Below are positions 21,426 through 21,725 of a stretch of DNA of 64,000 nucleotides, piece by piece. A program made the translations under genes and the position numbers. Within the stretch, counting starts at the first letter, position 1. Each line of letters starts with the position of its first letter. The notes under the pieces are model-generated. The model did not search any database. It was not told the origin of the DNA and saw only the letters and a list, made by a program, of their open reading frames with translations. This DNA is from Escherichia phage SDYTW1-F1-2-2_3, in the sequence record OR296290.1. One strand, 5' to 3'.

Positions 21426-21725
21426 TCACCATTCCTTACCGGTTGTAGTCGTAGAGCCACCACACCACAACGCTGTATCAATCACAACATTGTCTGGCGT
21501 AGACTTCTCTTCATTAATAGAAGGGTTAGCATTAGAGCAGGTTGCTCCGTTCCAGCGCATATCAATCTCACCAGAAGGAACCTTCTCACCTTTATGCCAG
21601 CGAGATACACAAATACCATCCACTGCTACTGCACACCATCCATCAGGACGGCTCTGTACGCAGCCTGTAAGGGCCACACAGACAAGGAAGATACAGATTA
21701 AGGATATTACACCACCCCAACTCAT
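21426..21725 (-). CDS. lipoprotein (signal peptide + LTGC lipobox)
   Basis: MSWGGVISLICIFLVCVALTGCVQS: hydrophobic core followed by a canonical L-T-G-C lipobox. Confidence 0.55.
   Translation of the reverse strand: MSWGGVISLICIFLVCVALTGCVQSRPDGWCAVAVDGICVSRWHKGEKVPSGEIDMRWNGATCSNANPSINEEKSTPDNVVIDTALWCGGSTTTTGKEW

Follow-up and report, generated by a model that had tools for sequence, protein, structure and literature searches.

The window analyzed here is a 64,000-nucleotide (nt) stretch of Escherichia phage SDYTW1-F1-2-2_3 (record OR296290.1), and its minus strand carries a gene for a prolipoprotein of 99 residues (21426..21725, -). The coding sequence begins with ATG, appears in the open reading frame (ORF) list, matches PF24052 and is orthologous to phiEco32 gene 106, annotated as 'putative phage lipoprotein'; its translation is MSWGGVISLICIFLVCVALTGCVQSRPDGWCAVAVDGICVSRWHKGEKVPSGEIDMRWNGATCSNANPSINEEKSTPDNVVIDTALWCGGSTTTTGKEW. 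A Shine-Dalgarno sequence (GGAGG, 21731..21735, -), read directly from the sequence, lies 5 nt 5' of the start codon. The single tRNA that ARAGORN identifies in the window, a tRNA-Arg with anticodon TCT (21745..21821, -), is found 19 nt upstream of the gene, and many small ORFs on the same strand surround it. The setting beside a tRNA and small ORFs had been described in an earlier note made from the sequence alone, as had the 99-residue product, its hydrophobic signal ending in the lipobox A-L-T-G-C and its Cys-rich mature part, and all of these descriptions were confirmed.

The DNA around the gene is approximately 92-94% identical to that of many 75-78 kb podophages of Escherichia and Shigella, which RefSeq classifies as Gordonclarkvirinae, genus Kuravirus (phiEco32-like phages with prolate heads). 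The gene order of the window is that of phiEco32, SU10, SGF2 and the BASEL phage SkaterBoy, and the tRNA-lipoprotein arrangement is identical in phiEco32, SGF2 and SkaterBoy. The lipoprotein matches phrog_4281. Phage 172-1 encodes a protein with 100% identity to it, and the identities in about 90 related phages are 58-99%. Its PF24052 score, its occurrence in some 90 related records and ratios of nonsynonymous to synonymous substitution rates (dN/dS) of 0.07-0.40, calculated against three orthologs, indicate that the ORF is a real gene. We infer that it is expressed early because it is syntenic with phiEco32 gene 106, read against the published temporal map (PMC8948821), and its position in the early cluster parallels the early expression of T5 Llp.

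The lipoprotein scores 118.7 bits against PF24052, 'Phage lipoprotein family' (cut-off 27, E=1.1e-34), over all of profile positions 1-80/80. A profile of its orthologs retrieves one meaningful match from the PDB, chain D of 9rps, 'Phage lipoprotein' (E=1.2e-18, query residues 6-70), which is Rtp45 of siphophage Rtp (UniProt Q333D9). BLASTP aligns the two proteins with 40% identity (E=4e-17). Rtp45 is itself a member of PF24052 (E=1.3e-37), as is OekoSE (bas18_0026), the exclusion protein of phage Oekolampad. Furthermore, hhalign matches the profile of the Kuravirus group to that of 12 siphophage exclusion lipoproteins with a probability of 99.8% (E=7.7e-29), in an alignment covering the signal peptide and the mature part up to the C-terminal [KR]EW. 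These comparisons identify the lipoprotein as a full-length member of the Rtp45 family, and through this homology they lend support to the role in superinfection exclusion or receptor masking that the earlier note had suggested. The protein adds a member to an already known family, and its loop is variant and its place in the genome unusual. Three long proteins of a representative library (P0018, P0023 and P0027; 669-1775 residues) also gave 5-11 repeated weak profile matches each, which were taken as spurious. The matches of P0027, a Gly/Ala-rich repeat protein, are confined to a GxxDMxYxG-like stretch and probably reflect its composition.

The mechanism of Rtp45 was established by the cryo-electron microscopy (cryo-EM) structure of Rtp45 in complex with LptDE(M) (Dunbar et al., PNAS 2025; PMC12685063). 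Rtp45 occupies the periplasmic interface of the outer membrane near LptD strands 5-8, between LptE and LptM. It contains a Cys30-Cys38 disulfide and a long hairpin that passes up through the LptD lumen and shifts extracellular loop 4 (EL4) by up to 20 Å, an arrangement that is incompatible with the binding of a receptor-binding protein (RBP). The same authors report that AF3 mispredicts Rtp45 (PMC12685063).

The elements of this architecture can be recognized in the window protein. Residues 1-21 constitute the predicted signal peptide (21663..21725, -), identified from the sequence and nearly invariant in Kuravirus orthologs; residues 6-21 are hydrophobic and end in A-L-T-G-C22. Within the lipobox L19-T20-G21-C22 (21660..21671, -), the conserved Cys22 aligns with the anchor Cys of Rtp45 and OekoSE; it is the residue at which the mature protein is predicted to begin and to be lipidated. 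Whether a lipoprotein is destined for the inner or the outer membrane is decided by the +2 sorting rule. Residue +2 is Val rather than Asp, and sorting to the outer membrane is therefore expected. The mature part contains four Cys residues (C31, C39, C63 and C88), which are invariant in 11 ortholog clusters. Alignments to 9rps_D, by BLASTP and within the family delimit an Rtp45-like core at residues 26-62 (21540..21650, -), where RPDGWC31...C39 is equivalent to the Cys30-Cys38 disulfide of Rtp45 and is followed by the hairpin motif, VPSGEIDMRW-G in the window protein and VPAGEVDVRY-G in Rtp45. C31 and C39 are invariant in an alignment of 21 family members, and the disulfide between them is predicted from sequence. 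The wider hairpin motif W..G..VPSGEIDMR..G is likewise conserved in sequence, and the AlphaFold2 (AF2) model of the protein is unreliable (mean predicted local distance difference test, pLDDT, 47). Together with the anchor Cys and the C31/C39 pair, the hairpin sequence belongs to the best-conserved parts of the protein. Finally, alignments define a C-terminal motif, GGSTTTTGKEW (21429..21461, -), whose [KR]EW ending is common to Rtp45 (GSKEWN) and OekoSE (KSREW). The window protein thus shares with Rtp45 and OekoSE the signal peptide, the lipobox, the RPDGWC...C pair, a VP(S/A)GE(I/V)D(M/V)R(Y/W/F)-G hairpin motif and the [KR]EW end, and its genome, like theirs, also encodes a homolog of the DUF6453 RBPs. 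It differs from both in its host genome, a prolate-head podovirus rather than a small siphovirus, in the absence of a basic residue from the n-region of the signal peptide, and in an extra variable loop of 26 residues with two further Cys.

The earlier note had compared the product with T5 Llp and Cor. The analogy stands for functional logic and fails for sequence homology, since only the signal peptide and lipobox are shared. T5 Llp (PDB 8A60, 7QJF) is also a small lipoprotein that a virulent phage makes early. It binds the periplasmic face of the outer-membrane receptor used by its own phage and alters the extracellular loops, which prevents RBP binding (PMC12685063), but it targets FhuA and acts through long-range allostery rather than physical displacement of a loop. 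An hhalign comparison of Llp (sequence checked against 8a60_B) with the family profile aligns only 27 columns, covering the signal peptide and lipobox; Llp matches no Pfam family and is absent from the PDB matches of the family profile at E<=10. Cor of T1, phi80 and N15 is another small exclusion lipoprotein, encoded near the tail-fiber genes in a T1-like phage, but it is FhuA-directed and its mature domain is unrelated in sequence to the window protein. By BLASTP, T1 Cor has no match to the window protein, and its match to Rtp45 is confined to the signal peptide. Homology to T5 Llp or T1 Cor was consequently rejected. As neither shares any mature sequence, the window protein is an analog of both and a member of the Rtp45 family.

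A small outer-membrane lipoprotein from a lytic phage might also be a lysis component, such as the outer-membrane subunit of a spanin, or have no role in adsorption at all. We regard this as very improbable, because the protein is a full-length homolog of one with a solved and different function, and because its gene neither lies within nor adjoins a gene for an inner-membrane spanin, holin or endolysin; the neighbors are the tRNA-Arg and small, soluble-looking ORFs. An Rz1-like spanin role was rejected on the further ground that the neighbors carry no lysis annotation in the related genomes examined.

The loop bounded by Cys63 and Cys88 (21462..21539, -) has no counterpart in Rtp45 or OekoSE. 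It varies in sequence and length among the aligned orthologs, which range from 88 to 108 residues (93, 99 and 108 for the closest). In those closest orthologs the flanks of the loop are nearly invariant and the loop alone diversifies. We infer a second disulfide, Cys63-Cys88, which is predicted from the sequence. The insertion raises the question of whether the Kuravirus proteins have diverged in function. This loop could confer a new specificity, directing the protein to another outer-membrane β-barrel, or the protein could bind LptDE mainly in order to throttle the export of lipopolysaccharide (LPS) and O-antigen during host takeover, with exclusion as a side effect. The absence of this variable insertion of 26 residues from Rtp45 and OekoSE would fit such a change, as would the early, takeover-type neighborhood of the gene and the strict O-antigen dependence of these phages, LptDE being the exporter of O-antigen (PMC11990801). 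On the other hand, the parts that define the Rtp45 fold and the lumen hairpin are the best conserved, and the Rtp45-LptDE complex is reported to form in good yield when its components are overexpressed together (PMC12685063), while evidence for another target was not found. We therefore consider functional divergence of this kind improbable. The evidence points to LptD as the likely target of the lipoprotein.

In siphophage Rtp, the Rtp45 gene adjoins that of the RBP Rtp44, downstream of the gpJ-like fiber Rtp43. Rtp44 has one clear match in the window, at 52307-53200 (+) (tblastn E=3e-14; phmmer E=2.5e-13 among 412 window ORFs). The match falls within the ORF at 52202..53236 (+), which encodes a DUF6453 protein of 344 residues that is the ortholog of SU10 gp19 and, from its PF20051 membership and Rtp44 homology, a candidate RBP. 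This protein scores 90.9 bits against PF20051 (cut-off 25, E=1.2e-25), the family to which Rtp44 belongs as well (E=1e-113). Its identity to Rtp44 is 25% across some 300 residues (BLASTP E=2e-16), and its only PDB match is the LptDE-bound RBP of Oekolampad (9rpt_C, E=3.9e-12). The SU10 ortholog, SU10_019, is 63% identical, matches PF20051 with E=2e-23 and is annotated as 'hypothetical protein'. In phage LAMP, it is the nozzle gene that bears the label 'putative receptor binding protein', and the DUF6453 gene is called 'putative structural protein'.

Immediately upstream lies the gene for the tail needle (51187..52200, +), a protein of 337 residues that is orthologous to SU10 gp18 (7z4b_EA, E=7e-176). 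Its stop codon ends 1 nt before the DUF6453 start, within the structural operon. We note that the ORF list starts the needle at a TTG codon (51121, 359 residues); the start at Met23 (nt 51187) follows the alignment to 7z4b_EA and the annotations of phages Paul and LAMP. The C-terminal part of the needle is a Phage_Tail_Tip domain (PF09327, E=4e-26). The same tip domain is present in Rtp43 (PF09327, residues 971-1099) and near the C-terminus of the gpJ-like protein of T1, and the needle matches these proteins with E=2e-5 (Rtp43, BLASTP) and E=2e-11 (T1, tblastn). The gpJ-like fibers are thought to display a separate RBP at their distal end (PMC8594841). Judged by homology, the window genome thus holds all three parts of an LptD module, with the lipoprotein gene located about 30 kb away in the early cluster beside the tRNA, unlike the Rtp45 gene, which adjoins the RBP gene downstream of gpJ.

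Adjacency to the RBP gene is typical of the family, not universal, because members in Webervirus (T1-like phages of Klebsiella) are unlinked too. The Webervirus lipoprotein, represented by CPT_Solomon_032 of phage Solomon ('receptor blocking protein'), belongs to PF24052 and has a TTTGKEW end like that of the window protein. It differs in coming from a siphovirus and in having a short form of 75 residues without the Cys-bounded loop. Its gene lies between VRR-NUC and Dam genes (L004 4995-5222, Klebsiella phage Solomon; L011 952-1179) and, in RCIP0005, approximately 10 kb from the DUF6453 gene, so that an unlinked exclusion gene is not unique to Kuraviruses.

The two genes nevertheless occur together in the cases checked, namely Rtp, Veterinaerplatzvirus 12397I, phiEB49, Webervirus RCIP0005 and the Kuraviruses, where both are present in about 90 Kuravirus-like records. 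Organism profiles from tblastn searches are parallel, with at least 386 records for the lipoprotein and at least 334 for DUF6453. Among the matches listed, the respective counts are 53 and 63 for Klebsiella, 4 and 4 for Dhillonvirus, and 4 and 4 for Veterinaerplatzvirus. A set of 43 Veterinaerplatzvirus records with a lipoprotein match does not figure in the host categories listed for the DUF6453 search; in the one Veterinaerplatzvirus genome checked, an Rtp44-like RBP gene directly adjoins the lipoprotein gene. Neither a lipoprotein gene of this family nor a DUF6453 gene was found in FhuA-dependent T1, whose fiber tip resembles the needle. The nozzle (E=5e-67) and the short tail fiber (E=8e-24) of the window have counterparts in Salmonella phage 7-11; in the same comparison the needle, the DUF6453 protein and the lipoprotein are all absent from that phage.

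Published work on siphophages connects these RBPs to their receptors. In BASEL I, receptor specificity corresponds without exception to the RBP locus found downstream of gpJ, and LptD is predicted as the receptor of Rtp (PMC8594841). A 2026 preprint based on 1,050 genetic screens describes four RBP families at this position that are unrelated to one another, each of which recognizes FhuA, BtuB, LptD or YncD specifically (bioRxiv 10.64898/2026.04.02.716166). The siphophage DUF6453 RBP family is the LptD-specific one (bioRxiv 10.64898/2026.04.02.716166; PMC8594841). For the podoviruses, BASEL II found that Kuraviruses are strictly O-antigen-dependent and proposed that their terminal receptor is the LPS core, by analogy with T-even phages (PMC11990801), and a 2023 review states that the receptors of SU10 have not yet been identified (PMC10743462). 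A full-text search of the literature, which was not exhaustive, located LptD together with Kuravirus, phiEco32 or Gordonclarkvirinae only in BASEL II, in the context of Dhillonvirus, and retrieved no phage paper naming Rtp45 outside a siphophage context. A paper on lptD mutations in phage-resistant mutants does not mention Kuraviruses, podoviruses or phiEco32 (PMC12057083).

Taken together, the sequence comparisons indicate that the gene probably encodes an Rtp45-type superinfection-exclusion lipoprotein that is directed at LptDE and blocks LptD-directed RBPs. Translation of early leftward transcripts would be followed by Sec-dependent export and by lipidation at Cys22, and the Lol system would then deliver the protein to the outer membrane, into its inner leaflet. 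Its mature domain, consisting of a Cys31-Cys39 disulfide knot and the VPSGEIDMR hairpin, would bind the periplasmic rim of the LptDE translocon. The hairpin would rise in the LptD lumen and displace extracellular loop 4, locking LptD in a form to which LptD-directed RBPs cannot bind. Infected cells, and the envelope debris that remains after lysis, would then stop adsorbing LptD-directed phages. The excluded phages most likely include the phage's own progeny, DUF6453 being a predicted LptD-binding RBP.

The DUF6453 homolog in the same genome suggests that these podoviruses use LptD as their final receptor. We hold it to be somewhat better than an even chance that the terminal receptor of Kuraviruses is LptD, recognized by gp19 on the tip of the tail needle, and that a complete siphophage LptD module has been transplanted into these phages. 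The module would comprise the gpJ-type tip domain on the needle, the DUF6453 RBP and the exclusion lipoprotein of the early operon. The needle would be more than the plug that pierces the membrane: it would also carry a receptor sensor, by which its own release and the formation of the nozzle are triggered. LptD exports the very O-antigen-bearing LPS on which these phages rely as the primary receptor. Pseudomonas phage DEV, an N4-like podovirus, provides a precedent, with O-antigen as its primary and LptD as its secondary receptor (PMC12892993). Its RBP, gp54 of the gp56-gp55-gp54 fiber, belongs to another receptor-binding module, and the main text of that paper nowhere uses the word 'lipoprotein' (PMC12892993).

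Several observations weigh against the proposed exclusion of LptD-directed phages or against LptD as terminal receptor. The window protein is only 40% identical to Rtp45, and DUF6453 is 25-27% identical to the characterized LptD-binding RBPs. The signal peptide n-region (MSWGG) lacks Lys and Arg, most family members beginning with MKK, and for this reason export and lipidation are predictions. The window protein also carries the 26-residue Cys-bounded insertion, and the AF2 model of the lipoprotein, computed from an 11-sequence alignment, is uninformative (mean pLDDT 47). The lipoprotein gene does not adjoin the RBP gene, the former lying at 21.4-21.7 kb (-) and the latter at 52.2-53.2 kb (+). 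As for the virion, the BASEL II model has only two RBPs, the long and the short fibers (PMC11990801). Shotgun proteomics of SU10 detected 34 proteins, including gp16-18 and gp20-24 but not gp19 (PMC4281155, Table 2). The SU10 cryo-EM paper assigns gp6, 9, 11, 12, 13, 16, 17, 18 and 20-24 and never mentions gp19, and no extra density is reported for the needle map, which has a resolution of 15 Å with C3 symmetry imposed. The failure to detect gp19 may be explained by a possible single copy per virion and by its low content of Lys and Arg (20 sites in the 344 residues of the DUF6453 protein), but it still counts as a genuine reservation.

Some of these points would be accommodated if the lipoprotein binds LptDE as Rtp45 does, but serves competition between phages by shutting out LptD-dependent siphophages (Rtpvirus, Dhillonvirus and others) from cells in which a Kuravirus is already established. 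The Kuravirus itself would then enter by O-antigen and LPS core only, and DUF6453 would have a function other than receptor binding. Membership in the PF24052/Rtp45 family is compatible with such a role, published Kuravirus models need no more than long and short fibers, gp19 is undetected in SU10 virions, and the lipoprotein gene lies among early host-takeover genes instead of tail genes. However, the DUF6453 gene follows the tail-needle gene by 1 nt in the structural operon, is conserved in about 90 Kuravirus-like records, and has been lost from phage 7-11 along with the needle and the lipoprotein. In addition, the tip domain of the needle is that of the siphophage fibers that bear these RBPs. 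For these reasons a purely competitive function appears unlikely.

By itself, the lipoprotein is of modest significance, the mechanism of its family having been solved in 2025, and its value is that of a pointer. The implications would be larger if LptD is indeed the terminal receptor. Kuraviruses, which are frequent therapy candidates, would then target an essential and conserved outer-membrane protein, and genome delivery as modeled for SU10 would acquire a defined trigger, located at the tip of the needle. The phages would also illustrate clearly the movement of a module for receptor recognition and exclusion between siphoviruses and podoviruses. Cross-exclusion between Kuraviruses and LptD-dependent siphophages would be predicted, which matters for the design of phage cocktails.

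Some further features of the early cluster were observed. A scan for promoters and terminators returned fewer sigma-70-like sites overall than were found in shuffled controls, and is not decisive for the timing of expression. Two sigma-70-like sites with 11/12 consensus matches are located upstream in the cluster on the minus strand, at 28728-28700 (TTGACA-17-TATAGT) and 28279-28251 (TTGACA-17-CATAAT). Both fit the early promoters described for phiEco32, though they are consensus matches only. Directly downstream of the lipoprotein gene, the ORF list gives an 84-residue ORF with a TTG start (21227-21481, -) that overlaps the end of the gene. Related annotations (a 198-nt coding sequence) and the sequence indicate that its real start is the ATG at 21423-21425, 1 nt past the lipoprotein stop (TGAtATG), for a product of 65 residues.

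Eight small early ORFs that flank the lipoprotein gene are apparent paralogs of approximately 70-85 residues, one being longer, and all are on the minus strand (19231-19491, 19497-19742, 19744-19974, 20996-21217, 23125-23343, 23354-23566, 23569-23820 and 23810-24208). Their common pattern consists of ..G-D-V-F.., an aromatic-I/L-K/R-T stretch and ..L..T/N-G... One pair is linked by BLASTP (E=2.6e-8), and the rest were joined through an iterative hidden Markov model search of 39 ORFs with E-values of 7e-5 to 8e-3. A single paralog family is plausible from these similarities, if only weakly supported.

Outside the phages named above, a 50-kb contig (L008, Logan SRR28250349) encodes a PF24052 lipoprotein of 94 residues at 10001-10285, with a similar Cys-bounded loop. 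The contig is metagenomic and phage-like, and the neighboring genes are small ORFs and those for TerB/TerC/TerD, NAMPT and PRPP synthetase. Phage 7-11 has genes of the NAMPT and PRPP-synthetase kinds, but without the lipoprotein.

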